Of a DNA stretch of 64,000 nucleotides, positions 1,929-40,844 are shown one piece after another (the stretch's first letter is position 1; each line of letters begins with the position of its first letter). This DNA comes from Candidatus Woesearchaeota archaeon. Its GTDB lineage: Archaea; Nanobdellota; Nanobdellia; Pacearchaeales; GW2011-AR1. The notes beneath the pieces are model-generated. The model did no database searches, was not told the origin of the DNA, and saw only the letters and a list, made by a program, of their open reading frames with translations. Where the stretch lies: contig CAYLLR010000001.1 of assembly GCA_964384965.1 (NCBI GenBank), forward strand, positions 2,568-66,567, in the 5' to 3' direction. The position numbers and the translations under genes are program-made.

Positions 1929-1974
1929 AATGAAAATGATTAAAAAGAGGCGTGATTTAAATTAAATAAAGAAA

Positions 1975-2577: not shown

Positions 2578-2885
2578 TTTATTTAAACCTCTTCTAAAAT
2601 TTCCTCAAAAAATTGATTAACAATTTATGAATATATAATTCAATTTTCCGAATATTTAGATTGATTACTTTGTAAACTTTTCCATTGGTTTATTTATAAG
2701 AACTTCCGATTTTAAGATTGATTGAGGCGTGTAATTTTGAGAAAGGAACTTTTTCTTTTCCCAACTCATTTTTAATTCACTTCTTTATCTCAAGTTTTTG
2801 AAAAAGTTCTTAATTGTTCCGATTTTTCTACTATTGGCTAAAAGGTTGTTTCGGAAATAATTAAAAACTATTTTTTACTCTCTTT

Positions 2886-4415: not shown

Positions 4416-4604
4416 AATTTAAGAGACTTTAGAATAAAAAAATCTTAAAATAAAGAGTAGGATAAAAATATTTCTTTTTAGATAATTGTTTTGCTTGGTT
4501 TATTTTAGTATTGCTGATTTTAAGAGATAATTCTCTTTCATTAACCTTTAGAATAATTTTTTCAAATAAAAAGTAATATAAATATCTTCTTTCTTCTGAG
4601 TTTT

Positions 4605-5789: not shown

Positions 5790-5790
5790 G

Positions 5791-6156
5791 ATGAAATCCA
5801 ATTTTAAAAAAAATAAATTTTTGAATTTTCTTCAGTCGGCCTTTTTCAGTTCTATCTTTTATTATTCTATTTCGATAAGTTTTTCTAATCAAAAAGAAAA
5901 AATACCTTATGAGTTATATTTTCAAAATTTTTACAAACCCAAAATAGAGGTAGTAAGAAATTATTTTGATTATGACAAGAGCGGTTCAATTGATTCTCCC
6001 GATGAATTGAAAGATTTATCGAGGGTTATTGGGGTCAATGAAAAAGATTTGTTTGTCAAACAAAACCTAAATTATTATTTTTATCTTGCTTACAATTCTT
6101 TATCAAAACAAGGTAAATTAAAAAATAGAAATACGGATAATGAAAATAAAAATTAA
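5791..6156 (+). CDS. Hypothetical protein containing an EF-hand-like loop (DYDKSGSIDSPDE).
   Basis: ORF only. The loop matches D-x-D-x-S-G-x-I-x-x-x-[DE]. Confidence 0.3.
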   Translation: MKSNFKKNKFLNFLQSAFFSSIFYYSISISFSNQKEKIPYELYFQNFYKPKIEVVRNYFDYDKSGSIDSPDELKDLSRVIGVNEKDLFVKQNLNYYFYLAYNSLSKQGKLKNRNTDNENKN

Positions 6157-6352
6157 ATTGCATCCCGGTTCTTCTCAAGAGAAGATTTTTAAAATTTCTA
6201 AAAAAGAGTATGAAGTTTGGTTAAAAGAAAGGGCAATGGAAAATAGGGCGAATAAAAGATTGTTAAAATTTTTAAAAAAATATTTTAAAGCAAATGTTGA
6301 ATTTGTTTCTGGTTTTAATTCTAAAATTAAGTTTTTTGAAATTGGATTATGA
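6140..6352 (+). CDS. DUF167/YggU (UPF0235)-like small protein.
   Basis: Pattern ..ENRANKRLLKFLKKYF..VEFVSGFNSKIKFFEI resembles the GKAN...L..L....V.IVSG.TSR.K core of DUF167. Confidence 0.5.
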   Translation: MKIKIKLHPGSSQEKIFKISKKEYEVWLKERAMENRANKRLLKFLKKYFKANVEFVSGFNSKIKFFEIGL

Positions 6353-6721
6353 GGATTTTAAGAAAAAATTTATTCAGAGAAAGGATTAATTTTTTCAGTT
6401 TCTTCCAATAACTTTTTGTATTCGAGGCTTTTTTCGGGGTTTTCTACAGCATACAGAAAAAGATTGGATAAATAATTTAATTTTGATATAGGATAATTTA
6501 CAAAATATTCTTTTTGATAATCACTTAATTGTTTGTATTTTTCAAAGATTTCAATATGGGAAGAGGTATCTTTTTTACGGTCTGAATTTTCTTTTTTATT
6601 ATTTTTTTTCTATCAAATTTTTTAAATTTTCCAAGAAGTCAAATCAATTTCTTTAGTTTTTTCATTTTTTATGATTTTTATCAGGGATATAATTTTTTTA
6701 GGAGTCCAAAGTTTTTAAAGA

Positions 6722-7258
6722 TTAATGACCCGGACACAATATTTCAAATTTTAATTTCTTGATAAATTCAAGAGATTCCTTCATTTTTTCCGGGGACGAT
6801 TCTGGAAAATCAGTTCTTCCAATATATCCCTTATGGAACAAAGTGTCTCCAGAGAACAAAATATTTTTGTAAAGAATGGTTATATCTCCTTGGGTATGAC
6901 CAGGAGTTTTATAGATTTTAAGGTTTTTATCCCGGAGATTTTCTATGGGAAGTATCTTTTTTAGTTTCGTCTGTGAATGGTCTTTATTAATCATATTTGT
7001 AAAATTTCCATAAACTTTTGCGTTCGGGAAAATATTTATGTTTTCACTATGATCATAATGCGCATGTGTTAAAATTATAGTATTTATTTCTTCGGGTTTT
7101 AAGTTCAGAGAAGATAGTGAATCAATTAATTCAGAAGAATTATCCTTTGAGGAGGTATCTATTAGAATGTTCTTGTCCGTGAATTTTATTAGATAAACAA
7201 TTGAACCCTCATTTTTGAAATTAATTTCGGTCACATTTTTGGAAATTTTTGTTATCAT
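6722..7258 (-). CDS. Metallo-beta-lactamase fold hydrolase (glyoxalase II-like).
   Basis: THAHYDHS, TPGHTQGD, SGDTLFHKGYIGRTDF and C-terminal CPGH motifs. Confidence 0.8.
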   Translation of the reverse strand: MITKISKNVTEINFKNEGSIVYLIKFTDKNILIDTSSKDNSSELIDSLSSLNLKPEEINTIILTHAHYDHSENINIFPNAKVYGNFTNMINKDHSQTKLKKILPIENLRDKNLKIYKTPGHTQGDITILYKNILFSGDTLFHKGYIGRTDFPESSPEKMKESLEFIKKLKFEILCPGH

Positions 7259-7305
7259 AGATTTAATAACAAAACTAATATAAACTTATTAATTTTTTCC
7301 TTTTC

Positions 7306-7671
7306 ATGAAAGTTTTATCTTTAAAACAGCCCTTCGCTGAATTAGTGGTTTCTGGAAGAAAAACAATTGAATTAAGAAGATGGAATACAAAATTTAGGGG
7401 AAAATTTTTAATTCATGCTTCTAAAATTCCAGATTCAAAAGCTATGAAAAAATTTAAATTTAAAAAATTACCTCTTGGAGTTATAGTCGGAAAAACTGAA
7501 TTAATTGAAGTTAAAAAATATGAAAATGATTTTGAACATAAGAAAGATAAGAAAAGACATTTAGCTGATTCTTCGTGGGGTAAATATGGTTTTGTTTTGA
7601 AAAATGCTAAAAGAATTAAACCAATTAAAGCAAAAGGAAAATTAAATTTTTGGGAGTTTGATTTAAGATGA
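7306..7671 (+). CDS. ASCH domain protein.
   Basis: LSLKQPFAELVVSGRKTIELRRW is typical of the ASCH N-terminus. Overlaps the next ORF by 4 nt. Confidence 0.6.
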   Translation: MKVLSLKQPFAELVVSGRKTIELRRWNTKFRGKFLIHASKIPDSKAMKKFKFKKLPLGVIVGKTELIEVKKYENDFEHKKDKKRHLADSSWGKYGFVLKNAKRIKPIKAKGKLNFWEFDLR

Positions 7672-8081
7672 AATATGAATTTTCTCCGAGTTTGCAGGTT
7701 CTTGCCGAGGACATTGCGAGGAGGATTTTTCCACATATAAAAATTGAGAGAGTAAAATGTTTTAGAAGTTATGGTTCTTCGACGAAGCATACAATTGCGA
7801 GGTGTCATGCGTTGGGAAAAATTATGCAAGAAGCGATGGGGGTTGACGCCTTTTATGCTTTGGAATTTCTTGGAGAAAAATTCAATAAAATGAAAAAAGA
7901 GGAAAAAATAAAAGTAGTTATTCATGAACTTATGCATATTCCAGAAAGTTTCGGAGGGGGGTTTAAGAATCATAATGTTGTGACAGATAAGAATATTAAG
8001 GAGTGTTATAAGGTTTATCTTGATTGTGTTAAAAATGAAAAAAAAATTGATTGGTTTAAATTTAAAAGGAAAAAAAATTAA
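7668..8081 (+). CDS. Putative HExxH zinc metallohydrolase (DUF45/YgjP-like).
   Basis: VIHELMHIPESFGGGF motif. Confidence 0.4.
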   Translation: MKYEFSPSLQVLAEDIARRIFPHIKIERVKCFRSYGSSTKHTIARCHALGKIMQEAMGVDAFYALEFLGEKFNKMKKEEKIKVVIHELMHIPESFGGGFKNHNVVTDKNIKECYKVYLDCVKNEKKIDWFKFKRKKN

Positions 8082-8391
8082 ACTTGAAACTTTTGTCGTT
8101 CCATTTTGGCGTAAAGGAATTGGTTTAATGTTTCAGCGTCGGGAAAAAGCGAAAGCTTTGGTTTTTGAATTCAAAAGTCCTGTAAAAATGGCAATTCATT
8201 CTTGGTTTGTTTTTTTCCCTTTTTTTGCAATTTGGTTAGATTCAAAAAATAAAGTTCTTAGTTATAAAATTGTCAAGCCCTTTGAATTTAATATTTTACC
8301 TTCGAAAAAATTTGTTAAGCTCGTTGAAGTGCCAATCAGTAAAAAGTATAAAGTTCTTGGACTTCCGTCGATTAAAGAAAGATTTAAATAG
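8020..8391 (+). CDS. DUF192-like protein.
   Basis: KGIGLMFQRREKA..ALVFEF..PV..AIHSWFVFFPFFAIWLDSKNKV...VKLVEVP fits the DUF192 pattern. Confidence 0.5.
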   Translation: MIVLKMKKKLIGLNLKGKKIKLETFVVPFWRKGIGLMFQRREKAKALVFEFKSPVKMAIHSWFVFFPFFAIWLDSKNKVLSYKIVKPFEFNILPSKKFVKLVEVPISKKYKVLGLPSIKERFK

Positions 8392-8460
8392 GAGTTTTGT
8401 TTTATTTAATTAGAAAAATAATTCCTTTTTATAGAGGAATTTATATTCGGAAAAAAGGAG

Positions 8461-8730
8461 GTGAGTGTAATGGGGAAAATAATAGTTAAAAAGGCTGTTG
8501 TAAGGAAGCCTGGACACCTTTACTACATCGACGCTAAAGGAAACGTTTGTGAAGCTAAGATGGCTAGAGGGGGAAAGAAAAAGAAAAAGGCTGCTAAGAA
8601 AAAACCAGCTAAAAGAAAGGTTGCCAAAAGAAAGCCGGCTAAAAGAGTTGCTAAAAAGAAACCAGCTAAAAGAAAGGCTGCTAAGAAAAAACCAGCTAAA
8701 AGAAAGCCGGTTAAAAGAAAAAGGAGATAA
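8461..8730 (+). CDS. Small lysine-rich basic protein: a 35-aa N-terminal domain plus a tail of tandem KKPAKRK(A/V)A repeats. Candidate nucleic-acid-binding protein.
   Basis: Five or more tandem peptide repeats. A 31-bp exact DNA repeat at 8589..8619 and 8675..8705. Shine-Dalgarno-like aggaggtg lies upstream. Confidence 0.55.
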   Translation: MSVMGKIIVKKAVVRKPGHLYYIDAKGNVCEAKMARGGKKKKKAAKKKPAKRKVAKRKPAKRVAKKKPAKRKAAKKKPAKRKPVKRKRR

Positions 8731-9066
8731 TTTCTTAAGAAGCAATTTTTAGGGGGTTTGCTTTTTTAGAAAATTCTTCTGGGTAATATGGAGGTGTTTT
8801 AAGCTTTTTTGGTTTTTTATTTTACAATTTTTATTTTTTTGTTCTGGAAGTGTTTTGTGATGTTTTTTATTTTTTTTGTTTTGAGTAAATTAAGGGAAAG
8901 GGGGTTTGTTGTTTTTGCGAAATTTTTTTATAATGAATGATTTTTAATTTTTGGAGTCCCACCACAAGAAAAATTTTATAAATTTAGGATTTAATTTTTC
9001 AAGTTTTTTAGTGTCAATTGCCTTTTTTATTTTTGATTCTTTTAAGGTTAATTTTAAATAATTGTC

Positions 9067-10077
9067 TTGTTGTTTGGTTTTATGACAATAGTTTTAGGAA
9101 TTGAATCGACGGCACATACTTTTGGGATAGGAGTTGTGAAGAATGGAAAAATAATTGCGAATAGAAAAGATATGTATACGACAAAATCAGGGGGAATTAT
9201 TCCCATGGATTCTGCAAAGCACCATAAGGAAGTTTCCATAAAAGTTTATTCTGAAGCTTTGAAAGAGGCGAAGATTAAAGAATCAAATATTGATGCGATT
9301 GCATTTAGTCAGGGTCCAGGTCTTGCCCCCTGTTTGATTGAAGGAATGAAATTTGCGAAAGCTTTAAGCAAGAGATTAAATAAACCTCTTGTTCCAGTTA
9401 ATCATTGTGTTGCCCATTTGGAAATTGGGAAGATAACCGGAGCAAAGGATCCTGTTTTGCTTTATTGTTCTGGAGCTAATACTCAAATTATTAGTTATTC
9501 CCTCGGAAAATATAGAATTTTCGGAGAAACTCTCGATAATGGGGTGGGAAATTTTATAGATGGGTTTGCCCGTTACGCTGGAATTGGTTTTCCTGGAGGG
9601 CCTGAACTTGAAAAATTAGCTGAGAAGGGAAAGAGGTATATAGAACTTCCATATGTTGTAAAGGGTATGGATGTTTCTTTTTCAGGAATTTTGACTAATC
9701 TGAAGCAAAAGTTTGATAAAAAAATTTATTCTTTAGAAGATTTAAGTTATTCTATGCAGGAAACGGTTTTTGCAATGCTTATTGAAACGGCAGAAAGAGC
9801 TTTAGCACATGTTCAGAAAAAAGAATTGGTTTTGGGGGGAGGGGTTGCGTGTAATTCAAGATTACAGGAAATGGCGAGGATTATGTGCAAGGAAAGGGGT
9901 GCAAAATTTTTTTGTCCGGAACGTTCTCTACTCGTCGATAACGGGGCGATGATTGCATACCTGGGAGAAATAATTTTTAATTCGGGAATTAGATTTTCAG
10001 GAGAAGAAGTGGAAAAATTAGATATTAAACCCCGACAACGTACAGATGAAATTGAGGTTAATTGGAAGAAAAATTAA
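9067..10077 (+). CDS. kae1: tRNA N6-adenosine threonylcarbamoyltransferase Kae1 (stand-alone, no Bud32 fusion).
   Basis: N-terminal LGIESTAHTFGIGVV, metal-binding His pair (VNHCVAHLEIG), length 336 aa. Confidence 0.9.
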   Translation: MLFGFMTIVLGIESTAHTFGIGVVKNGKIIANRKDMYTTKSGGIIPMDSAKHHKEVSIKVYSEALKEAKIKESNIDAIAFSQGPGLAPCLIEGMKFAKALSKRLNKPLVPVNHCVAHLEIGKITGAKDPVLLYCSGANTQIISYSLGKYRIFGETLDNGVGNFIDGFARYAGIGFPGGPELEKLAEKGKRYIELPYVVKGMDVSFSGILTNLKQKFDKKIYSLEDLSYSMQETVFAMLIETAERALAHVQKKELVLGGGVACNSRLQEMARIMCKERGAKFFCPERSLLVDNGAMIAYLGEIIFNSGIRFSGEEVEKLDIKPRQRTDEIEVNWKKN

Positions 10078-10388
10078 ATTAATTTGCATAGGTTTCTAGA
10101 ATGAATTTCTATTGAACAGCCACTTTTTAATTTTTTTTCAATTTCCTTCATGAAATCTATTAATTCTTCATCATTTTTTATTTTGTCCTCTTTAATTAGT
10201 TGATAATTTTCTTCCCCGAATGATAATTGCACATAGTAATAATTTAATCCTTCTTTCCTTCCACTTAAATAAATGAATTTTTCTTTTGCAAGAGAAATTT
10301 CTAATCTTCTAACCTGGTTCGTGTTTAATCTTGAACTTGCTAGTTCCTTTTCATTCAAAAATAGATTATATCCTGTTTTCTTAATCAT
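10074..10388 (-). CDS. Hypothetical protein.
   Basis: ORF only. Convergent with kae1. Confidence 0.3.
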   Translation of the reverse strand: MIKKTGYNLFLNEKELASSRLNTNQVRRLEISLAKEKFIYLSGRKEGLNYYYVQLSFGEENYQLIKEDKIKNDEELIDFMKEIEKKLKSGCSIEIHSRNLCKLI

Positions 10389-10529
10389 TTTCTTCTATGA
10401 ATTTGAGGTTATTTAAACATTGTTGTAGTTAGGAAGATTAGTTAACCATATTGGGTTTCTTTTGGAATTTTAAATTTAGAATTTTAGATAAAATTTCAAC
10501 GGAAGTTTTATAAACTAAAAATTGCCTTA

Positions 10530-10910
10530 ATGTTTGTATCGGATGAACGAGCAGTTCAAATGAAGAGTTTGGCGTTCTTTCGATTAACTAAATATGGCTA
10601 TAATTTAAAAATGGATGGATATCAAATTGTTGAAAAGGCGAAACGAACCGGAAAAATTGAGAAAGGAACCAACGAGGTAACCAAGGCAATTGAAAGGGGC
10701 GTTGCAAAATTTGTTGTATATGCAAAAGATGTTGAACCTAAAGAGATAGTGGCACATCTTCCTTTGCTGTGCAAGGAGAAGGGGGTTCCCTTTTTGGAAG
10801 TTGATAGCAAGCAAAAATTGGGAATTGCCGTGGGTCTTCCCGTTGCAGCTTCTTCTATTGTGATTGTTGAGCCTGGTGAAGCAAGTCAGGACATCGCCTC
10901 TATAAAGTAA
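10530..10910 (+). CDS. rpl7ae: Ribosomal protein L7Ae. The true start may be an internal Met near 10608.
   Basis: [26 protein letters not shown]...[12 protein letters not shown]. Confidence 0.85.
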
Positions 10911-10933
10911 TTTTAAAATAGGCAAAATTCAAT

Positions 10934-11233
10934 ATGGCAAAAACAGACAAAAATAAAAGAAAGCAACAAGGGAAATCGCAGGCTTCTAAAGGGAGTGATA
11001 AGATTCTTGGAGAGATTGTTCCGGCAGTAGTTCGGGAGCTTCTTGGAAGAACTGGTTTTAGAGGAGAGATTACACAAGTTAAAGTTCTTGTCGAAGAAGG
11101 GAAGGATAAGGGAAGAAGTATGAGAAGAAATGTGAGGGGTGCTGTGAGAGTGGGGGATGTTTTAATGCTTAGAGAAACAGAAATTGAAGCCAGAAGAATT
11201 AAATCAAATATTAAAAAAGGAAATTATAAATAA
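10934..11233 (+). CDS. rps28e: Ribosomal protein S28e.
   Basis: [46 protein letters not shown]. Confidence 0.85.
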
Positions 11234-11234
11234 A

Positions 11235-11489
11235 ATGAAAGAAGAATTTGGGGAACTTGTTAAAATCGTTGAGGATTTTTTTGATAAAGAATACAGTTTG
11301 CCCGGAATTCATCCCGGCTTTATTGAGATTGCAAGTCCAAATAAAGAGTATCTTTTGAAGGGTCAAAAAAAGATTGAAGAAATGAATTTTCCGAATTATG
11401 AAACTCTCTGCACTTTTTTTAAAGAAAGAGATTTAGAATACCACCATGATAGATATAAATTAAAAGTTAGTTTTAAAAGGAAGAATTAA
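11235..11489 (+). CDS. Small hypothetical protein inserted between S28e and L24e. The ORF track gives a longer overlapping version from 11184.
   Basis: ORF only. Tightly packed between rps28e and rpl24e. Confidence 0.35.
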   Translation: MKEEFGELVKIVEDFFDKEYSLPGIHPGFIEIASPNKEYLLKGQKKIEEMNFPNYETLCTFFKERDLEYHHDRYKLKVSFKRKN

Positions 11490-11490
11490 A

Positions 11491-11694
11491 ATGCCTAAAT
11501 GTGTTTATTGCGAAAAAAATTACGAGCTTCCGAGGGGATTGACTTTGGTGATGAAGGATGGTAAAGTTAATTATCTTTGTTCTTCAAAATGTAGAAAAAA
11601 TATGTTAATGGGAAGAAGAAAAGTTAGATGGTTGCCAAAACATTTGAAATTCAATCCTAAAAATAAGAAAAAGGAAAAGAAAAGAAAAAAATAA
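11491..11694 (+). CDS. rpl24e: Ribosomal protein L24e.
   Basis: CVYCEKNYELPRGLTLVMKDGKVNYLCSSKCRKN zinc-ribbon core. Confidence 0.85.
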   Translation: MPKCVYCEKNYELPRGLTLVMKDGKVNYLCSSKCRKNMLMGRRKVRWLPKHLKFNPKNKKKEKKRKK

Positions 11695-31029: not shown

Positions 31030-32856
31030 TTGGAATGTATGGAAAGTGCTTCAAAATCAATGTTTGGGATTTTAATTTTTTTAACTATTCTTCTTAGCGT
31101 TAGTTTTGTTAGCGCGACTATTGATACGGTTATTATAAATTACAACAGTGATAACATAAACTACAATTATTCAGTTATAGGAAGGAGTTATGACCTTTAT
31201 GTTTCTGGAACAAATCTAACGCAGATAAATGATTCTGAGTTAGAATTTGTAAGGAAATTGGGAGAAAATACATTTCAATATAAATTTACTCCAGGAAATA
31301 TTGCCGGACTAAGGACTTTCGGAACAGGGGAAAATCAATTTAATCTAAGTGTTTTAAGCGAGGCAGACGAACTTTCAAATTCTATTGGGAGTGTCATAAT
31401 AAATATAACCGATGATTCTTCGTCCATTAATGTAAATGATTTTAGTTTGGAAAATAAAATAGTAAGAATGCTTAATGTTAGTGATGTTGCAGATTTGAAT
31501 ATAGATTATCTATTGGATTTGAATCTTTTGTTAAATGGATTGACTTTTGATTTAAATTTTAATAAAGGTTCTGCATATCCACAATATAATAGTGTAAATA
31601 TAAATAGTTCTCCTGCTATAACCGTTATTGAAAACTTAATTAGATTTAATAATTTACCTTCTTATATGACTGTTGATGAGATTAACACTGGTCACTTTGA
31701 ATATTTAAATGAGCTTATTGATGCATATGGTGCAAATATAACTTACCCTTCAAATTCTCGTGTGGTTAAAGAGGGAAACAATTTTGAATTTTTTTCGGAT
31801 GATGGATATTCCACTTTGAATAGAAATGATTTAGAAAATGCTCAAGAGATTATTAATGAGAAAATCAAGTATATTAATCCAGATGAGGTCATTAATGAGC
31901 TTCTTCCATTAGGAAATTTCTCAGAATTCAAAAAATTTGTTGATTTTAATGTTTCTGTTGATTTTGGTAATTTGGAAATTTTAGAAAGTGGAACGTATAA
32001 TCTAACTCTTATCTATACAGATAAGTATGGTAATAACGGGACGATGCCTTTCATTGTGAATTTGAATGTTACGAATGTAGGTTATGAGGAAAGCGTTGAT
32101 TCTAATGGGACGGTAACTTTTACGAGTCCGGTAGTGAACCAGACTTTGGAGAGAATTGAAAATCTCCCCCAAAACATAACAATAACTCCAATTTTGTATG
32201 GGGTAAATAAGCCCTCTGGTTTTGCAGGTCTTCCACAGAATGTTCATTCTTTAAATTTTATGCAAATAAATTCCAGTAATGATAGCAAAACAAATAATGG
32301 TTCATATTCTTTATATTTTAGGATATTGACCTCTTCAATCGATTCAAATTACAAAGATAATGTTAGTTTGTATATTCAAGAAGGAAATAGCTGGATTAAG
32401 TTGCCCACAATATTGATTAATGAAACTTCTGAATATTATATGTATAATTCCACAATCCCCCATTTTAGTAATTACCTTATAGGATATTACCAAGAAAGTG
32501 TTTCTTCAGGAGGGGGATCTTCTTCAGGAGGTTCTTCAGGAGGGGGATCTTCTTCTGTGGGAAGTTCTAGAACTACAAAGCCAATTTCTTTAATTTCAGA
32601 ACCCACCTCTCCTAAAAGCCCAGCTTTTCCTTCGGAGCCTCTCAATTTAAGCAATCCTTCAGATAACCCTTCAGGATTATTTGGAATAACTGGTGCTGCT
32701 ATTGGAGCTCTCTCTTCTCCGGGAGGGATAGGGATAATCCTTTTTGTTTTGATTCTTCTTGCCCTATTAATTATTTTGAGAATAAAGAGAAGGGAAAATA
32801 AAAAGAAATCTTCTAAAAAATTAAATTCTGGTGGTGATGGAATTGGTGAAAAATGA
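31030..32856 (+). CDS. Large sequon-rich surface protein with signal peptide, Gly/Ser linker, Pro-rich segment and C-terminal TM anchor.
   Basis: Hydrophobic N-terminus. (S/G) repeats, PTSPKSPAFPSEP, GIGIILFVLILLALLIILRIKRRENKKK. Confidence 0.55.
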   Translation: MECMESASKSMFGILIFLTILLSVSFVSATIDTVIINYNSDNINYNYSVIGRSYDLYVSGTNLTQINDSELEFVRKLGENTFQYKFTPGNIAGLRTFGTGENQFNLSVLSEADELSNSIGSVIINITDDSSSINVNDFSLENKIVRMLNVSDVADLNIDYLLDLNLLLNGLTFDLNFNKGSAYPQYNSVNINSSPAITVIENLIRFNNLPSYMTVDEINTGHFEYLNELIDAYGANITYPSNSRVVKEGNNFEFFSDDGYSTLNRNDLENAQEIINEKIKYINPDEVINELLPLGNFSEFKKFVDFNVSVDFGNLEILESGTYNLTLIYTDKYGNNGTMPFIVNLNVTNVGYEESVDSNGTVTFTSPVVNQTLERIENLPQNITITPILYGVNKPSGFAGLPQNVHSLNFMQINSSNDSKTNNGSYSLYFRILTSSIDSNYKDNVSLYIQEGNSWIKLPTILINETSEYYMYNSTIPHFSNYLIGYYQESVSSGGGSSSGGSSGGGSSSVGSSRTTKPISLISEPTSPKSPAFPSEPLNLSNPSDNPSGLFGITGAAIGALSSPGGIGIILFVLILLALLIILRIKRRENKKKSSKKLNSGGDGIGEK

Positions 32857-34361
32857 AATTTTTAATAGCTTGTTTAATGTTCTTTTTTGTAGTCTTTCCC
32901 CTTGTAAGTGCTAACGTTCAGTTTGTTCCCTTGCCTTATAAGGAGACTTTGAGTCCTTCGAGAATCTCTGGAACGACGAATATTAATTTTGAAATTAAAG
33001 ACTCCAGTGGAAATCCCATACAAAACGCATTAATAACAATTCAGGGAATTTCAAATCAGGGATTTAGTCAAAATTTATTCACGGATGAAAATGGGAAAGC
33101 GTCGACTTCGTTGGCTAGTAACGAAATTTTTGTGTATACCATCTATAAATTCACTTATGAACTTTTGACAAATGGATTTTTTACTAATTCTAACAAAAAT
33201 ATTCAATTAACTCTCAATAAAATTCCAGATAACAAGTGGTACTTTTATTACGAAAATAATGGGGAGATTGAAGTTCAATTAAAAAGCTTGGATAATGACA
33301 CAATTTATGTTCCTGGAGAATACATAAATCAAGTTTTACAAATAAAGAATGTTTTAGGGAGAAATTTTGATTTAGTTAAAGATAAAACTTTGGCCGTGAC
33401 TGTGGATAGCAAAACTCTAAACAAAATTAATTGGTGGGGAAGCATTTTACCTTATGATTCTTTGTTACAATTAACATTAAAACCGAACGGGTGGGTAAAA
33501 GCGACTATAAAAGGAGATATTTTTGAAGTTTGTGTTGGTAATGCTATTGGGAAATATCAGGATAAGTCTTTTGATGTTTCAGGTGCTGAGTTTATATGTG
33601 AACAAGAAAATAATGCTAAGAATCCTCCTAATTTGGTTCCGGATTGGATATTAAATAACACGTATAAGCTTGACATAAGTATAGCCTATAGTTTGGATAA
33701 TCAAGAAAAAAACTTCAAATTATTAACCCAAGATTTTTTTATAAAAAACGGAGAATGGAAACCCAAAATTAATTCGGTTCCAGAAACAAATTTGAATATT
33801 AACGAAAATTGGATTTATGATATAACTCCTAAATATAAAACAAATTTTATTTCATATACTCTTTTGGAATCTCCGTCGGGAATGACAATTGATTCAGTTG
33901 CAGGTATCGTAAAATGGAAACCGACAAAATCCGGAAGATATAACGTTACGTTGAGGGGGTCTCACTTTTATTTTGCTAACGATTCAAGAATGGCTTATAG
34001 AGATCAAAGTTTTGTTTTAAATGTAAAAAATCCTAATGCAAATTTGTATGCAGATAGATTATATCTTTTTAACAAAAATGTAAAAGTTGGAGATTTTGTT
34101 AGGGCTAAATTTATAGTTCACAATAACGATGACAAAACCAATTCATTTTCTTACAAAATTGAAAAGGGAGATGGTAATTCAATTGAGTATAATTTGGCTA
34201 ATCTTTCTCCAGGAAGTGATAGAACCATTTATACTTCGTGGAGTTATGGAAAGGAGGGATTATTTACTCCTAAACTAATTATAGATCCACAAAACAAAGT
34301 TTATGAGAAAGATGAAAATGATAATATAAAAAATTTTGAGGGGGTCAATGTAACAAATTAA
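32853..34361 (+). CDS. Secreted protein with a C-terminal CARDB-like domain.
   Basis: Signal MKFLIACLMFFFVVFPLVSA. C-terminal ..LSPGSDRTIYTSWSYGKEGLFTPKLIIDPQNKVYEKDENDN matches the CARDB pattern. Overlaps the previous ORF by 4 nt. Confidence 0.55.
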   Translation: MKFLIACLMFFFVVFPLVSANVQFVPLPYKETLSPSRISGTTNINFEIKDSSGNPIQNALITIQGISNQGFSQNLFTDENGKASTSLASNEIFVYTIYKFTYELLTNGFFTNSNKNIQLTLNKIPDNKWYFYYENNGEIEVQLKSLDNDTIYVPGEYINQVLQIKNVLGRNFDLVKDKTLAVTVDSKTLNKINWWGSILPYDSLLQLTLKPNGWVKATIKGDIFEVCVGNAIGKYQDKSFDVSGAEFICEQENNAKNPPNLVPDWILNNTYKLDISIAYSLDNQEKNFKLLTQDFFIKNGEWKPKINSVPETNLNINENWIYDITPKYKTNFISYTLLESPSGMTIDSVAGIVKWKPTKSGRYNVTLRGSHFYFANDSRMAYRDQSFVLNVKNPNANLYADRLYLFNKNVKVGDFVRAKFIVHNNDDKTNSFSYKIEKGDGNSIEYNLANLSPGSDRTIYTSWSYGKEGLFTPKLIIDPQNKVYEKDENDNIKNFEGVNVTN

Positions 34362-34362
34362 G

Positions 34363-35067
34363 ATGAAAATTAAAAATCTTTTAGCAACAACTTTGGTCGG
34401 TTTTTCTTTGTTGTCTCTTCCAAAATTGAATGCGCAAACATATGATTCTTTAAAAACCGTCGAAGTTGCGAAAAATTTAGAAAATCATGGCTTCAATTTA
34501 AAGGGGTATCTCTTGAATAAGCCATTTCAGTTTCAGGTAGATTATGGAGGAAATTCAAGAATAATTAACGGTCCCCTTGTTGCAGAAAAAGACGAAAATG
34601 ACAATTTAATGATTTATCCAATTTTTGTTGCTTTTAATAAAAATAATTCTGAAACAAGAATGGATAAAGATTTTATCGATAATTATGGGGGATTAGGGTT
34701 TATATTAGATGATAATAATGTGCCTCCTTCAGTTTATGCAGATTCAATAAGGAAACTTTTAAAGGGAAATATAACGGGAGTAAAAATTAAAGTCAGAAAT
34801 AGGTTGGAATCAAAGCTGGAAGGAATCTACCCAAATCCAAGTAATGGGTCTGTAAATGTAAAATATTTCTTAAAAAAGTTTGAAAATGTGAGTTTTGATG
34901 TTTATGATATCCTGGGAAGAAAAGTTTATTCATTTGAAGGAAAAGAAGGTGAGAGAATTAAAAGAATTAATACGGGGGATTTATCCTCGGGAATTTATTT
35001 TTTGAGAATGAATTATAAAAATGAAAGGAAATTGGGAGAGATTAGAAAGTTCATAATTTTAAAATAG
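34363..35067 (+). CDS. Secreted protein with a bacterial T9SS-type C-terminal sorting domain (Por secretion tail).
   Basis: N-terminal SLLSLPKLNAQ. C-terminal YPNPSNGSVNVKYF..VYDILGRKVYSF..SSGIYFLRMNYKNERKLGEIRKFIILK matches all conserved blocks of the Por_Secre_tail consensus. Confidence 0.6.
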   Translation: MKIKNLLATTLVGFSLLSLPKLNAQTYDSLKTVEVAKNLENHGFNLKGYLLNKPFQFQVDYGGNSRIINGPLVAEKDENDNLMIYPIFVAFNKNNSETRMDKDFIDNYGGLGFILDDNNVPPSVYADSIRKLLKGNITGVKIKVRNRLESKLEGIYPNPSNGSVNVKYFLKKFENVSFDVYDILGRKVYSFEGKEGERIKRINTGDLSSGIYFLRMNYKNERKLGEIRKFIILK

Positions 35068-35098: not shown

Positions 35099-36184
35099 AT
35101 GTTAAAAAATAAATCTAAAAATATGAATAAAATTAAAAATAATTTATTTTATCTTTTGCCTTTTTTATTTTTATTCAATTTGCAAAGTACAAGGGCACAA
35201 TTTAAAATTGAATCAAACTCAAAAAATTTTGACTTAAAAAGTAAATATTTTGAGGTTGCTGCGAGAGATACTTTTGGATTAAAAGATATGGTGAATATAA
35301 AGGGAATTGTAAAACTAAAGTATGACAATAATTCTCTTTATTTCAAAAGAAATGGACTTCTTAATCATTCTTATGGGGGAAACATCGATTTAAATGTGAT
35401 TGAGTTTTATTATAACCAATCGAAACAAAATATAAAAACTGAAAAATTTACAACTCAAGATTCTCCCTTGGGAAAAATAATAACAAATACTTCAATACTT
35501 AATAAGGACAGAATGAAAGAAATGGGGGTCGCTTTAAATTATAAAGATTTTTTCATTAGTTTTGAAAATGCGAAAAAAAACAATGAGGTTGATGGACAAA
35601 CTTTAATAAAAGTTAACGAAGAAAAAGCTTTAACTTTTTTTAATTTCAATTTCAATAACGAGACATCTATTTTTGGTGCAGGATTTAAATATGGATTTTT
35701 TAAGTTTATACAAAATAAGAAAGATGGAGATAAATTTAAAGATTATTTTGCTAAACTCAATTACAAAGGAATAAATCTCTATTATGCAAAGGATTTTGCA
35801 GGTTTTTTTAGTTTTAATCTTTTTGATAAGATTAACTTTGATATTAGTTATGATAAAAAAATAAAAATAAATTTGGCAACTTCTGATTATTCAAAACTCA
35901 ATAAACGAAAATTTGAAAGAAATTTGGAAAATAGGTTAAGGATTGTTCCAAGAATTTATGATTCAAATTTAGAAACTTCAAAAAATTATTTGGAAGATAT
36001 GTTTTTCACAGATTTGTATAGTTTTTCCCTCAATAAAGATGAAATAAATGCAAATCTTAATTTTAAAAATATATTATTTCATTATTCTAAAGATAGTTGG
36101 AAAATTGGTTTAAGGTATAAATTTTTAATTACAACATACGATTTTTATAAAAAAGAGGCAAAATTAGGATTGTTTTTTGACTGA
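35099..36184 (+). CDS. Secreted protein of unknown function, possibly a beta-rich outer-membrane-like protein.
   Basis: Signal peptide ending STRAQ, N/K/F/Y-rich alternating pattern, 361 aa. Confidence 0.4.
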   Translation: MLKNKSKNMNKIKNNLFYLLPFLFLFNLQSTRAQFKIESNSKNFDLKSKYFEVAARDTFGLKDMVNIKGIVKLKYDNNSLYFKRNGLLNHSYGGNIDLNVIEFYYNQSKQNIKTEKFTTQDSPLGKIITNTSILNKDRMKEMGVALNYKDFFISFENAKKNNEVDGQTLIKVNEEKALTFFNFNFNNETSIFGAGFKYGFFKFIQNKKDGDKFKDYFAKLNYKGINLYYAKDFAGFFSFNLFDKINFDISYDKKIKINLATSDYSKLNKRKFERNLENRLRIVPRIYDSNLETSKNYLEDMFFTDLYSFSLNKDEINANLNFKNILFHYSKDSWKIGLRYKFLITTYDFYKKEAKLGLFFD

Positions 36185-36226
36185 ACTATCCAATAAATTT
36201 ATAACCCCCTTCCTCTTATTTTTTTT

Positions 36227-37027
36227 ATGAAGGTGATAAAATCTTCCGGAGAATTGGAGAGGTTTGCTTCCAAAAAAATTTATTATACGATTCGGGATGC
36301 CGGAGGATCAAAAAGATTGGCTAAAGATGCGATTAAATTGATTAAAAAAAAATATAGTTCTGAGGTTTCTACGAAGGAAATTTTATTGACGCTTTTAGAT
36401 TTTTTGAAAAGGGAAAAGGGAGTTTCTGAAAAATATGATTTAAAGAGAGCAATTATGTCTCTTGGACCCAGCGGCTTTCCGTTTGAGAGCTTTTTTGCGA
36501 GAATCTTAGATTATTATGGATACAAAACGAGTGTGGGCAATAAACTCAAAGGAAAAATAATTTATCATGAGGTAGACATTGTAGCTATAAAGGATGGTGA
36601 AAAGTTTATGATTGAGGCAAAATATCATAATGAAAAAGGGACAATTACAAGGCTAAAACCTGCAATGTATACCTATGCTCGCTTTCTCGATTTAAAAAGA
36701 CAAAAATTTAATGCTCCTTGGCTTGTGACAAATACAAGGTGTTCTCAAGATGCAATAAATTATGCGAAAGGTGTTGGACTTAAAATGACTGCTTGGAAAT
36801 ATCCAAAAAAAGGTAATTTACAGGAGTTAATTATGGAAAAAAATTTGTACCCTATTACAATTTTAAAAAGTTTGCCCTTGGAGGGAATAGAAAAATTATA
36901 TGATTTGAAAATTCTTGTTGCAAAAGACCTCTTGAAATTTTCTCCCAAGGAGATTTCTAAAAAAATAAAAATTGATGAACAAACTGCTACTAAGATTTTA
37001 GAAGAAGCGGAGGCAGTTTCTTTTTAG
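36227..37027 (+). CDS. ATP-cone domain fused to a PD-(D/E)xK (Mrr-like) nuclease domain, with a C-terminal HhH motif.
   Basis: MKVIKSSGELERFASKKIYYTIRDAG (ATP-cone). HEVDIVAIKDGEKFMIEAKYH (D...E.K). Helix-hairpin-helix-like segment near the C-terminus. Confidence 0.6.
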   Translation: MKVIKSSGELERFASKKIYYTIRDAGGSKRLAKDAIKLIKKKYSSEVSTKEILLTLLDFLKREKGVSEKYDLKRAIMSLGPSGFPFESFFARILDYYGYKTSVGNKLKGKIIYHEVDIVAIKDGEKFMIEAKYHNEKGTITRLKPAMYTYARFLDLKRQKFNAPWLVTNTRCSQDAINYAKGVGLKMTAWKYPKKGNLQELIMEKNLYPITILKSLPLEGIEKLYDLKILVAKDLLKFSPKEISKKIKIDEQTATKILEEAEAVSF

Positions 37028-37087: not shown

Positions 37088-37564
37088 CTATTTGGTTTTG
37101 AGAACAACTATATTATTCATTCCTCTTCTTTTTCTAATTATGAATTGTTTTGCCTCAAGTTTGTCTAATAAGCGAGTCATTTTTACTTTTCCAATCCCTA
37201 ATTTTTCCATGAGGTTTTTTTGAAATGCAGCATTTCCCTCACTTTGAATCAACTGGATTGTTTTTCTTTCATCTTCGTCTAACTTTGAAAGGTTTAACTT
37301 CTTCGGTCTTTCTTTTACTTTTTTTATCACTATTTTCTCGTCTGGTTTTGAAAACATTATATAAAGACCGATTGTGGCAACAACAACAACAATTGCAAGC
37401 CCAAGAAATAATTGTGCATTTGAGGTTTTATACATCACGCAATCAATTCCGTGAGTACAGGTTTCCGAGATTATTTTTTCTAACGAGTAATTAAAACCCC
37501 AAACTACAAGTGCAATCGCGGCCGCAATTCCAAGGGTTAGTCCCCCCACTTTCTTATTTTCCAT
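37088..37564 (-). CDS. Membrane-anchored winged-helix transcriptional regulator (two N-terminal TMs plus C-terminal wHTH).
   Basis: Two hydrophobic helices flanking CTHGIDC. C-terminal ..EKLGIGKVKMTRLLDKLEAKQFIIRKRRG. Confidence 0.45.
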   Translation of the reverse strand: MENKKVGGLTLGIAAAIALVVWGFNYSLEKIISETCTHGIDCVMYKTSNAQLFLGLAIVVVVATIGLYIMFSKPDEKIVIKKVKERPKKLNLSKLDEDERKTIQLIQSEGNAAFQKNLMEKLGIGKVKMTRLLDKLEAKQFIIRKRRGMNNIVVLKTK

Positions 37565-37591: not shown

Positions 37592-38332
37592 TTACTTGCG
37601 GATTTTGAAATATCCCTTTTTTTCCAATTTTGTCGCGAGATTTCTGTCTCCCTCGAGAATAATTTTCCCCTTATCCATAATATAAACCTTCTCCGGTTTT
37701 AAGTATTCCAGAATTCTTTTATAATGTGTTATAATGAGAATTGATTTCTTTTTATTTAGTGTTTTTTTTATTGCTTTTGCGATTATTTTTAATGAATCAA
37801 TGTCCAGTCCAGAATCTACTTCATCAAGAAGTATTAATTTTGGATTTAAAATACTCATTTGGAGGATTTCATTTTTCTTTTTTTCTCCTCCTGAAAACCC
37901 CTCATTAAGATTTCTTTCAATAGTTTCATTTGAAATTTTTAGTGTTTTTATTTTCTCTTTTAAATCGTTTTTAAATTTTGAAATTGAAAAATCTTTTTTT
38001 AACTCTTTGGAGGATGCTTTAAGAAATTTTCTTGTAGAAATTCCCGAAATTTCTTGGGGGTTTTGGAATGATAAAAATATCCCCTTTTTTGCTCTTTTAT
38101 CTGGTGAGAGTTTTGAAATGTCTTTTCCCTCAAATTCTATTTTCCCTTTGGTTATCTTGTATTTTGGATGCCCCATTATTGTATTTACGAGGGTTGATTT
38201 TCCAGAACCATTTGGTCCCATTAGTGCATTTATTTTTCCAAAATTTAATTTTAAATTGACCCCTTTGAGAATTTCTTTTCCTTCCACCTCGATGTGAAGA
38301 TTTTTTATTTCAAGTATTTTTTTATTTGTCAT
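37592..38332 (-). CDS. sufC: Fe-S cluster assembly ATPase SufC.
   Basis: Walker A GPNGSGKST, ABC signature FSGGEKK, Walker B ILLDEVDSGLD. Confidence 0.9.
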   Translation of the reverse strand: MTNKKILEIKNLHIEVEGKEILKGVNLKLNFGKINALMGPNGSGKSTLVNTIMGHPKYKITKGKIEFEGKDISKLSPDKRAKKGIFLSFQNPQEISGISTRKFLKASSKELKKDFSISKFKNDLKEKIKTLKISNETIERNLNEGFSGGEKKKNEILQMSILNPKLILLDEVDSGLDIDSLKIIAKAIKKTLNKKKSILIITHYKRILEYLKPEKVYIMDKGKIILEGDRNLATKLEKKGYFKIRK

Positions 38333-38333
38333 T

Positions 38334-38708
38334 TTAGTTTAATGCCTGCTTTACGGCTTCTAATGCAAGAAGCTCACATTTTATTCTGGTTGGAATTATT
38401 TTAATTCCTAAAATTTTATCCATGTCTTTTTTGGTTAACTTTTTTGCGTCTTTTATTTTCATTCCTTTAAGATTTTCTGTTAATAGTGATGCTGAAACTG
38501 TTGAGATTACGCACCCGTGCCCTTCAAATTTTGCATCTTTAATCTTTCCGTTCTTTATTTCTAATTCTATTTTTATTTCATCTCTGCATCCAATATTCTT
38601 CAATTTTTTTGAATGGGTCGCATTTTTTAATTTTCCAAAATTTGGTTTCTCAGAATAAATTTCTAATAATTCATCTTGATACATTGATTTTGTTTTCATC
38701 ATTAACAA
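38334..38708 (-). CDS. Fe-S scaffold protein (IscU/SufU/NifU-like).
   Basis: GCRDEIKIELEI... and GHGCVISTVSASLL cysteine motifs. Confidence 0.75.
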   Translation of the reverse strand: MLMMKTKSMYQDELLEIYSEKPNFGKLKNATHSKKLKNIGCRDEIKIELEIKNGKIKDAKFEGHGCVISTVSASLLTENLKGMKIKDAKKLTKKDMDKILGIKIIPTRIKCELLALEAVKQALN

Positions 38709-40099
38709 ATAGAATTTTCTATTTCCAATTCTATTAATTTGTTTAATTCAACGGCATATTCTAAGGGCAATTCTTTTATTATGGGGTTTATAAAACCAGA
38801 TACAATCAATTTTGTGGCCTCTCTTTCCGGAATTCCTCGGGACATGAGATAAAATAGCTGTTCTTCACCTATCTTTCCTATTGTGGCTTCGTGGGAAGCT
38901 TCAACTTTGTTTTCATGGATTTCCATCGAGGGAGTTGTAATTGCTTTACTTTTGTTATCTAACATTAATCCGTCACATCTCACATTTGATTTTGAATTTT
39001 TAGCCCCTTTTTTAATTTTGACCAATCCCCTATAAGAACTCGTTCCTCCTCCCACACTAATTCCTTTTGAAATAATGCTTGAAGAAGTGTTTTCAGCAAG
39101 GTGGTAAACTTTACATCCTGTGTCTTGGTATTGGCCTTTTCCTGCATAAGCTATTCCCGTATAATCTGTTTTTGAATTTTTTCCTTTTAAAATACTACAC
39201 GGATAAAGCATAGTTGTATGACTTCCTAAATTTCCATTTACCCATTCCATTATTCCATTTTCATGAACGATTGCTCTTTTTGTGTTTAAATTATAGGTGT
39301 TTTTTGACCAATTTTCAATACTTGAATATTTGACTCTTGCTCCTTTTAGAACATATATTTCTACTCCTCCCGCATGAAGGGAATTTTCATCATATTGTGG
39401 TGCAGAACATCCTTCAATATAGTGTAATTCCGAGTTCTCGTCGGCAATTATAAGTGTGTGTTCAAACTGACCCCCTTTTTTTGAGTTCATCCGAAAGTAT
39501 GCTTGAAGAGGAATCTTTACTTTTACATTTTTTGGGACATAAATAAAAGTGCCTCCACTCCAAACTGCACAATGCAATGCTGAAAATTTATGAAGATTTG
39601 GGGAAATGCATTTTGTCATAAAATATTTTTTAAAAAGTTTTTCATGCTTTTTTAGTGCAGTGTCACAATCCACAAAAATAATGCCTTTTTTTTCTAAATC
39701 TTTTTTTAGTTTATGGTAAATTGTTTCACTTTCGTATTGTGCTCCGACTCCTCCGAGAGATTTTTTTTCTGCTTCAGGAATTCCCAATTTATCAAAAGTT
39801 TCTTTTATTTCTTTTGGAACATCTTCCCACGATTTTGAATTTTTGGCATTTGGTTTAAGGTAATAATGAATTTTATTTAAATCAAGTTCTTTTAAGTCGG
39901 GGCCCCAATCCGGAAAAGATTTTTTATTGAAGATTTTAAGAGCGTTTAACCTTTTTTTCAACATCCATTTGGGTTCATTTTTGTCTTTTGAAATTTGTCT
40001 AACCAATTTTTCACTCAAACCTTCTGGACTTTTGTATTTTAAATCTTCTTTATTTGCTTTAAGAGAGTATTCTTTTAACTTAATTTTTGGCATAAACAT
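38702..40099 (-). CDS. sufB: Fe-S cluster assembly protein SufB/SufD.
   Basis: 465 aa with a beta-helix core. Gene order is sufB-iscU-sufC on the minus strand. Confidence 0.85.
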   Translation of the reverse strand: MFMPKIKLKEYSLKANKEDLKYKSPEGLSEKLVRQISKDKNEPKWMLKKRLNALKIFNKKSFPDWGPDLKELDLNKIHYYLKPNAKNSKSWEDVPKEIKETFDKLGIPEAEKKSLGGVGAQYESETIYHKLKKDLEKKGIIFVDCDTALKKHEKLFKKYFMTKCISPNLHKFSALHCAVWSGGTFIYVPKNVKVKIPLQAYFRMNSKKGGQFEHTLIIADENSELHYIEGCSAPQYDENSLHAGGVEIYVLKGARVKYSSIENWSKNTYNLNTKRAIVHENGIMEWVNGNLGSHTTMLYPCSILKGKNSKTDYTGIAYAGKGQYQDTGCKVYHLAENTSSSIISKGISVGGGTSSYRGLVKIKKGAKNSKSNVRCDGLMLDNKSKAITTPSMEIHENKVEASHEATIGKIGEEQLFYLMSRGIPEREATKLIVSGFINPIIKELPLEYAVELNKLIELEIENSIC

Positions 40100-40181: not shown

Positions 40182-40844
40182 ATGTGGTATTTGAAATTTA
40201 AATATAAGCATAGTGATTGTATTTATGCTCCAGAGTTGAAAAGGTTGAATTTGAATGGATTTTTTCATTATCTTGGAGAATACAAAAAAGGAAGGCACAT
40301 TTATACTTCTTCAATACAACATTTAATTGGAGATGAAAAGAATATTAAGAAGTATTTTAGATATCTGAAAAATCACAAAAAAATTGTTAATTATGAAATT
40401 TATGGAAATGTAATTATCACTCTGGCAAAACATAAAAAAGAACTAAAAGTTTATGGACAGGTTTACAATCCTCTCTTTATTTATCCTTCTCCAGCTTATT
40501 TGAGTAAAGAGGGGTTTGAAATAATTGAAGTTGCTTCTTGGGATAGAAAAGAGATTGAAACCCTCGTTAATGGTATAGAAAAAACAAAAACAACAGAATA
40601 TTTCAAAATACTTAGTTTTAAGAAAGGAAAAGTAGAAGATATTTACATTTCCAGACTTCTTCCAAAACTTCCAAAAAAACAGGAAGAAGCTTTGAGGTAT
40701 GCATTTATAAAAGGATATTATAACTTTCCAAGAAAAATTAGTTTGGATCAATTATCAAAAATATTAAAAGTATCAAAATCCACTTTCAGAGAAAATTTAC
40801 GAAAAGCTGAAGCCAAGATTATTCCAAAATTAATTCTTGAGTAA
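40182..40844 (+). CDS. HTH_10 (bacterio-opsin-activator-type) DNA-binding protein.
   Basis: C-terminal KGYYNFPRKISLDQLSKILKVSKSTFRENLRKAEAKI matches the GYFD.PR...L.ELA..LGIS.ST..E.LR.AE.K pattern. Confidence 0.55.
   Translation: MWYLKFKYKHSDCIYAPELKRLNLNGFFHYLGEYKKGRHIYTSSIQHLIGDEKNIKKYFRYLKNHKKIVNYEIYGNVIITLAKHKKELKVYGQVYNPLFIYPSPAYLSKEGFEIIEVASWDRKEIETLVNGIEKTKTTEYFKILSFKKGKVEDIYISRLLPKLPKKQEEALRYAFIKGYYNFPRKISLDQLSKILKVSKSTFRENLRKAEAKIIPKLILE

Follow-up and report, generated by a model that had tools for sequence, protein, structure and literature searches.

What could be the use of a nuclease joined to a nucleotide sensor? The question is raised by a gene in a 64,000-nucleotide stretch of DNA (the window) from contig CAYLLR010000001.1 of a Candidatus Woesearchaeota archaeon. 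Its product has an ATP-cone at the N-terminus, a PD-(D/E)xK nuclease of the Mrr type in the middle and a helix-hairpin-helix (HhH) domain at the C-terminus. An initial annotation, made from the letters and a list of open reading frames (ORFs), had proposed this combination at positions 36227-37027 and had suggested a nuclease gated by the nucleotide pool, potentially in defence or repair. We show here that the three folds, an intact set of catalytic residues and conserved nucleotide-contact positions are present in the window protein. Its gene is native to a DPANN archaeon, stands alone and is present in a single copy, and the product belongs to the widespread AF1548-like family. The ORF lies where it had been placed, starts with ATG and encodes 266 amino acids, and both peptides quoted from it are found in the translation (MKVIKSSGELERFASKKIYYTIRDAG is residues 1-26 and EVDIVAIKDGEKFMIEAKYH is residues 115-134). 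The start codon is supported because the N-termini of homologs align at residue 1.

The nuclease and the C-terminal domain are both recognized by Pfam. Residues 83-189 match Mrr_cat (PF04471; E=2.6e-5, 24.7 bits against a cut-off of 21) and residues 208-264 match AF1548-like_C (PF22357; E=7e-11, 42.5 bits against a cut-off of 23.9), and the PD-(D/E)xK and HhH assignments of the initial annotation both stand. A phmmer search of PDB sequences gives one strong relative, AF1548 of Archaeoglobus fulgidus (1Y88; E=5e-38), in which chain residues 23-194 align with residues 89-263 of the query, over both the nuclease and the C-terminal domains. Since the match begins at chain residue 23, AF1548 has the nuclease and the tail without the cone; its function is not known. 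Other matches to restriction-fold nucleases are AspBHI (12.0), NucS (11.9), Can2 (10.1), MspJI (9.6) and FokI (9.5). NCBIfam yields weak matches only, to HhH regions of RadA and topoisomerase I, and PADLOC a single weak match to the Mrr-like nuclease end of ZorD.

D117, E130 and K132 of the window protein align with D38, E51 and K53 of AF1548, which were predicted to be catalytic when the 2007 Global Ocean Sampling (GOS) study predicted AF1548 in silico to be a restriction endonuclease (PMC1821046). These residues form the D...E.K motif that had been noticed in the letters, and they are preceded by a glutamate in helix 1 (E87). Ten positions, namely F86, E87, G109, E115, D117, E130, K132, R152, D155 and P209, are 100% invariant in 70 representatives of clusters formed at 50% identity, and they are invariant in 81 genome-derived homologs as well (151 sequences altogether). 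We also considered A131, inside the E-x-K motif and usually Cys in the family, as an inactivating or redox-relevant change. This idea was rejected, as Ala or Val occurs there in about 15% of homologs.

Recognition of the ATP-cone is a matter for the family as a whole. The Pfam model (PF03477) matches residues 1-61 over profile positions 1-68 of 88 with E=1.5e-4 and 22.6 bits, where the curated cut-off is 25.8, and the N-terminal 85 residues alone, compared with the PDB by phmmer, returned noise only. Since that segment alone matched nothing, the cone has to be assigned on evidence from the family. A PF03477 match is precomputed for most close homologs, and remote full-length homologs with 31-34% identity exceed the cut-off (44.0, 39.9 and 37.8 bits). 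Among PDB entries, a profile of 70 diverse homologs matches the ATP-cones of NrdR (E=0.007, over profile positions 3-73), a cone of an anaerobic reductase and, at E=0.06, the N-terminal domain of RAD51. As far as comparison of sequences can do so, these three lines of evidence secure the ATP-cone call, and the proposal of an N-terminal cone holds. The arrangement of a beta-hairpin followed by a four-helix bundle is found there too.

Can such a cone bind a nucleotide? K5, G8, F13, K17 and G26 are at least 90% conserved in the 70 diverse homologs; K5 is present in 66 of 66 cone-bearing homologs and K17 in 63, the other three having Arg. An alignment to Escherichia coli NrdR by hidden Markov model (HMM) sets VVKSNDVREPFNEEKL against VIKSSGELERFASKKI, and by HMM alignment K5, E11, F13 and K17 map to K50, E56, F58 and K62 of Streptomyces coelicolor NrdR. 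The nucleotide contacts in that protein are K50 (inner-site phosphate), E56 (adenine N6), F58 and K62 (outer site) (PMC9110341). The putative contact set of an ATP-cone, with a lysine in the hairpin, a glutamate and an aromatic residue in the loop and a lysine in helix 1, is present in full. Gating of the nuclease by nucleotide status would be plausible with such a cone, and the LGPSGFP linker, whose L79, G80, P81 and G83 are at least 90% conserved in the same 70 homologs, may couple the cone to the nuclease.

If the nuclease fold and the HhH domain served only to bind DNA, the protein would be a nucleotide-sensing regulator in the manner of NrdR and would not cut at all. NrdR is the closest ATP-cone match by sequence and by structure. 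It likewise consists of a cone joined to a DNA-interacting module, nucleotide-dependent oligomerization controls its interaction with DNA, and its cone has matching nucleotide-contact residues; in E. coli NrdR the Lys is even followed by Ser, as it is here (VVKS against VIKS). Among archaea, NrdR is rare (PMC9110341). One homolog, P0260 (512 amino acids), has a 238-residue lysine-rich, histone-H1-like (HC2) extension ahead of the ATP-cone, which hints at nucleoid association and would suit a regulator. However, no homolog examined departs from E87, D117, E130 and K132, and because the complete catalytic set is invariant, selection on catalysis is indicated, which argues against a regulator that does not cut. 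The layout is different as well. The NrdR cone follows a Zn ribbon, whereas that of the window protein stands directly at the start and precedes the nuclease; neither a Zn ribbon nor a winged helix-turn-helix domain is present, and there is no NrdR match in NCBIfam. To look at gene linkage, ORFs were called in 84 homolog loci with flanks of up to 6 kb on either side, and then clustered. No recurrent cluster of the size of a ribonucleotide reductase is found among the neighbours in these loci, singleton neighbours not being individually annotated, and the family co-occurs with phyla that already have NrdR. Judged by its lack of an N-terminal Zn ribbon and of recurrent nrd linkage, the window protein is not NrdR, and its predicted output is catalysis and not repression. 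We regard the non-cutting regulator as highly improbable.

How unusual is the architecture? A word-indexed search gave 1038 homologs at E<=1e-3 (best non-identical E=1e-142), far more than chance could account for, and an exhaustive search of 1.84 billion representatives gave 954 clusters (50% identity) at E<=1e-3, of which 340 reach E<=1e-30. The best 120 homologs of the former are nearly all 262-276 amino acids long, with a few of up to 305, and most of them have all three Pfam domains. The best 150 representatives of the latter are nearly all 262-295 amino acids long and aligned from residue 1-3, and only a handful of these 150 lack the cone (186-223 amino acids, like AF1548). Members without a cone make up a small minority of the family. 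In the source databases homologs are named 'ATP cone domain-containing protein' (NCBI), 'restriction endonuclease' or 'hypothetical', and those in the best 120 are assigned to DPANN archaea. The cone/nuclease/HhH combination is the standard architecture of a large family annotated in databases and not a one-off fusion, a point that the initial annotation missed, and the window gene is a typical member which adds no new architecture. A literature search found no paper describing or testing the fusion of an ATP-cone to a nuclease; an earlier in-silico mention is possible.

The family is widely but thinly spread. A scan of one genome for each of 185,579 GTDB species gave at least 599 matching stretches. 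Among the matches listed, the DPANN holders are Pacearchaeota, Woesearchaeota, Nanoarchaeota, Diapherotrites and Aenigmatarchaeota, and other archaeal holders are Hadarchaeota, Thermofilaceae, Nitrososphaerota, Bathyarchaeia and Altiarchaeota. The bacterial holders, with the same limitation, comprise many Patescibacteria and many Bacteroidota, Acidobacteriota, Chloroflexota and some proteobacterial bins. Homologs of the nuclease are about 55-65% identical across DPANN. In a neighbour-joining tree of the family the sequences group by phylum, and the window protein lies within a DPANN clade, adjoining sequences of Nanoarchaeota and Pacearchaeota. Other genes of the window agree with this placement (identity to DPANN loci is 76% for histidyl-tRNA synthetase and 71% for diphthamide synthase). 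The nuclease gene occurs once within the window, with a GC content of about 0.30 compared to 0.23-0.35 in its flanks. Horizontal acquisition together with the upstream surface-protein genes, which had been described as foreign-looking, was considered and is not supported: GC matches the flanks, and the closest relatives among the matches listed are DPANN of the Pacearchaeota/Nanoarchaeota type. A separate observation from the tree concerns six metagenome-assembled genomes (MAGs) labelled 'uncultured Gammaproteobacteria' (L041, L044, L053, L054, L061 and L064), which share a clade with Levybacteria and other Patescibacteria loci. They have a common gene order (C39-like peptidase, nuclease, nickel superoxide dismutase, SodX, methyltransferase, FemAB and UvrD), and their bins are probably mislabelled.

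Could the protein be a weapon against viruses? Defence was one of the two roles that had been suggested for it. A type IV (Mrr-like) restriction nuclease, released when infection perturbs the ATP/dATP pool, would act somewhat like Can2, Card1 or NucC. Type IV restriction enzymes have Mrr_cat as their catalytic domain, and the window protein shares with them the D...ExK centre and a TNT-type strand motif. The weak PADLOC match to the nuclease domain of ZorD, the name 'restriction endonuclease' in some sources and the prediction made for AF1548 point in the same direction. However, the Pfam scan shows neither an Mrr_N winged-helix reader nor any other modification-reading domain, and the genomic context is not that of a defence gene. 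Among the 148 immediate flanking genes of the 84 loci no PADLOC model was matched by more than four members, and no DNA methyltransferase is among the recurrent families in a Pfam scan of the flanking genes. Three Csa3 matches among these neighbours are scattered, with no CRISPR or CBASS context. No homolog was found by tblastn in 50,697 phage records and no relatives of the family in 2.9 million viral contigs, while BFVD gave single-domain look-alikes only, with TM-scores, normalized to the query, of at most 0.40. Only 2 of 72,556 plasmids carry the family, both times within a metabolic operon. Since the evidence from neighbours, phages, viral contigs, plasmids, native GC and a tree that follows taxonomy is negative throughout, the defence suggestion has no contextual support. 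The likeness to Can2, Card1 and NucC is limited to the nuclease core, as the sensor here is an ATP-cone instead of CARF and the presumed ligand is a housekeeping nucleotide instead of a cyclic oligoadenylate. With an ATP-cone at its N-terminus, vertical inheritance and neither a defence-island nor a mobile context, the window protein is not a type IV restriction enzyme, nor is it a CARF/SAVED-nuclease effector. We find release of the nuclease upon infection very unlikely; the family looks like a housekeeping or stress enzyme and not like an anti-virus weapon.

A different role is suggested by the neighbours of the gene in certain bacteria. There the ATP-cone nuclease heads a cluster of co-directional, tightly spaced genes, being followed by a beta-CASP nuclease of the metallo-beta-lactamase (MBL) fold, a putative thymidine phosphorylase (TIGR02645) and a ribose-phosphate pyrophosphokinase, that is, a phosphoribosyl pyrophosphate (PRPP) synthase. 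This module is held by Bacteroidota, one Acidobacteriota genome, one probably mis-binned MAG, a Pontibacter plasmid and a Criblamydia plasmid (Chlamydiota). RefSeq annotation of Pontibacter actiniarum and Criblamydia sequanensis confirms the four genes, which overlap or are closely spaced. A P2-type cation ATPase is optionally found between the nuclease and beta-CASP genes. The phosphorylase has 500 amino acids and scores above the TIGR02645 cut-off, being also close to AMP phosphorylase (TIGR03327). Genes for a universal stress protein, a P2-type ATPase, D-lactate dehydrogenase, phosphoketolase and acetate kinase are often near the module; the flanks in Criblamydia encode a P-type ATPase, phosphoketolase, glycogen phosphorylase and acetate kinase. 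In Bradyrhizobium diazoefficiens, the three kinds of gene that follow the nuclease in the module (phosphorylase, PRPP synthase and MBL) constitute the FixK2-dependent operon bll3117-bll3115, which is induced by microoxia, and the FixK2 regulon includes phosphoketolase and acetate kinase too (PMC6515984, PMC9104804). The module headed by the ATP-cone nuclease appears to be uncharacterized.

Patescibacteria offer a second context of this kind. In L019 (5307-8333) and L022 (5288-7315) the nuclease gene has as its immediate neighbours a member of the LOG family (Pfam 'possible lysine decarboxylase' / SLOG) on one side and the gene for ribose-5-phosphate isomerase B (RpiB) on the other, and in L033 both are within 6 kb of it. 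A single association with 'P-type ATPases' (21 of 84 loci) was rejected, as it merged Cu-type P1B enzymes (DPANN, Patescibacteria, Acidobacteriota) with Ca-type P2 enzymes (Bacteroidota). In passing, L056, one of the module loci, is labelled 'Citrobacter freundii MAG' and groups with Bacteroidota; its bin is probably mislabelled.

How might such an enzyme act? The C-terminal (HhH)2-type domain would hold nucleic acid by contacts to the backbone, without sequence specificity, and the Mrr-like centre (E87, D117, E130, K132) would cut it with the help of a divalent metal. The N-terminal cone would bind adenine nucleotides (ATP/dATP, perhaps ADP) and thereby switch the enzyme on or off. A change of oligomeric state would be the most likely route, as in every ATP-cone studied: those of reductases and of NrdR act through oligomer rearrangements driven by ATP/dATP (PMC9110341, PMC5794259). 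What would the cutting be for? We tentatively favour, with somewhat less than even confidence, controlled breakdown of nucleic acid that feeds the salvage of nucleotides and pentoses under limitation of energy, oxygen or nucleotides, and not the restriction of foreign DNA. This role is ranked first because of the phosphorylase/PRPP-synthase operon in bacteria and the LOG/RpiB contexts in Patescibacteria.

Repair, the other role suggested at the outset, has to be set against salvage. The protein might be a structure-specific nuclease of DNA repair or recombination, acting on flaps, forks or junctions, whose ATP-cone ties cutting to the availability of deoxynucleotides and so coordinates it with repair synthesis. 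In XPF, Mus81 and Hef a nuclease of the PD-(D/E)xK fold precedes an (HhH)2-type domain at the C-terminus, and the window protein has the same build. Its C-terminal domain resembles the N-terminal DNA-binding domain of RAD51/RadA, its nuclease core is NucS/Hjc-like, and its strong conservation by vertical descent would suit a housekeeping role in DNA transactions. Helicase genes are also found near some family members: in L001, a DPANN contig, a gene for an SNF2-family helicase (4184-5965), found in no other of the loci, ends 36 bp upstream of the homolog, and in seven related Patescibacteria-like loci UvrD is encoded within 2-5 kb. However, no repair gene recurs across phyla as a neighbour in the 84 loci, the operon partners with the best conservation belong to catabolism and salvage and not to repair, and the family is absent from most genomes (at least 599 stretches, compared to 185,579 species), which would be unusual for a core repair factor. 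Even at E<=10 there is no match to the ERCC4 Pfam model; only the general layout is common, the HhH domain here is of the RAD51 N-terminal type, and an ATP-cone replaces the helicase-like N-terminus. The window protein is not an XPF/Mus81 enzyme, and we consider a repair nuclease in the broader sense to be unlikely, if still deserving of attention.

Several observations weigh against salvage under nucleotide control. The cone score of the window protein itself falls short of the curated cut-off. DPANN homologs, that of the window included, have no operon partner, and no partner is universal across the family. The beta-CASP/phosphorylase/PRPP-synthase module is not found near the window gene, and the only beta-CASP protein in the window is the universal aCPSF1, encoded 17 kb away. 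In DPANN and in some Patescibacteria the neighbours are redox and metal genes (Table 1), which the salvage idea does not explain; in L087 a VKOR gene even overlaps the stop codon of the nuclease gene. The loci used for the neighbourhoods are the approximately 80 most similar to the query, with crude ORF calls and single-linkage clusters, and many of them are phylogenetically non-independent. Finally, AF1548 is a structural-genomics entry for which the literature has an in-silico prediction only, and the literature search gave no experiment on any member of the family.

Suppose nevertheless that salvage under nucleotide control is correct. To our knowledge, all ATP-cones studied so far regulate ribonucleotide reductase or its repressor NrdR. 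The family might then be the first class of enzymes outside ribonucleotide reduction to come under ATP-cone control, an ancient and mostly vertically inherited nuclease that reads ATP/dATP or adenylate status and opens a way from nucleic acid to nucleotides and ribose phosphate when cells are hypoxic, starved or dormant. Its bacterial partners in this would be the beta-CASP nuclease, the AMP/thymidine-phosphorylase-like enzyme and PRPP synthase. Symbionts among DPANN and Patescibacteria are generally reported to be without de novo nucleotide synthesis, and the enzyme could be especially important to them. We regard this wider proposal as doubtful, and it is offered as a speculation. Its consequences would be considerable. 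At least 599 species, from both prokaryotic domains, have an ATP-cone sensor joined to a nuclease, and if the cone gates cutting, nucleic-acid degradation would be coupled to nucleotide supply in a new way, with a bearing on dormancy and hypoxia responses of bacteria and on nucleotide scavenging in ultra-small symbionts. A nuclease of only 266 amino acids that is naturally switchable by a nucleotide would also be at hand.

Table 1. Positions of the nuclease gene, its parts and its neighbours in the window, and of gene neighbourhoods in homolog loci
Feature	Sequence or locus	Positions	Strand	Basis
Complete gene (266 aa + stop, ATG start) for ATP-cone / Mrr-like nuclease / HhH protein of AF1548-like family	Window	36227..37027	+	ORF list
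ATP-cone, aa 1-78: beta-hairpin (strands 2-4, 10-12) and four helices; putative nucleotide contacts K5, E11, F13, K17	Window	36227..36460	+	
Linker LGPSGFP, aa 79-85, near-invariant family-wide	Window	36461..36481	+	Conservation in 70 diverse homologs
Mrr-like PD-(D/E)xK nuclease core, aa 86-196	Window	36482..36814	+	
Codons of invariant nuclease residues	Window	E87 36485-36487; E115 36569-36571; D117 36575-36577; E130 36614-36616; K132 36620-36622	+	
C-terminal HhH domain, aa 205-266 (AF1548-like_C; RAD51/RadA N-terminal domain-like)	Window	36839..37024	+	
TTTATAA, candidate archaeal TATA box, centre 26 nt 5' of ATG	Window	36198..36204	+	Sequence reading
Membrane-tethered DUF7343/MarR-like winged-helix protein, convergent neighbour	Window	37088..37564	-	Pfam DUF7343 E=7e-7
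SUF Fe-S assembly operon (SufC, NifU_N scaffold, SufB/D), beyond DUF7343 gene; ordinary housekeeping	Window	37592..40099	-	
HTH_10 regulator, divergent from SUF operon; ordinary housekeeping	Window	40182..40844	+	
Nuclease/beta-CASP/phosphorylase/PRPP-synthase module	L085 (Pontibacter plasmid)	1972-6597		
Nuclease/beta-CASP/phosphorylase/PRPP-synthase module	L086 (Criblamydia plasmid)	7001-11608		
Same four-gene module	L055, L056, L065, L066, L069, L070, L081, L084			
Redox/metal neighbours: DsbA, DsbB, VKOR, copper P1B-ATPase with HMA, DUF411, nickel superoxide dismutase with S26-like protease	L002, L004, L005, L015, L017, L033, L035, L087; L037, L041, L053, L054, L061, L064, L071			

In the window the nuclease gene is separated from the upstream ORF by an intergenic gap of 42 bp. 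The TTTATAA element within it suggests, as a candidate only, that the gene is transcribed from a promoter of its own into a leaderless mRNA. The membrane-tethered winged-helix protein that had been noted next door is indeed encoded there, by the convergent DUF7343 gene. It is 68% identical to its equivalent in L015, and members of its cluster occur near the nuclease in L002, L004, L012, L015 and L017. One or two DsbA genes stand between the nuclease and DUF7343 genes in L002, L004, L015 and L017. This synteny is confined to the DPANN sub-clade of the window.

Two minor observations can be added. The L001 contig contains a gene for a dCTP deaminase/dUTPase (9740-10309), 3 kb downstream of the homolog and found in no other of the loci. 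Upstream of the nuclease gene in the window, the ORFs at 31030..32856 and 35099..36184 have no Pfam match, and between them the ORF at 32853..34361, with CARDB and Ig-like domains, directly precedes a gene at 34363..35067 (+). The latter encodes a 234-amino-acid protein with a type IX secretion C-terminal sorting domain (Por_Secre_tail, E=5e-16), a hallmark of Bacteroidota, whereas other genes mark the contig as DPANN archaeal.

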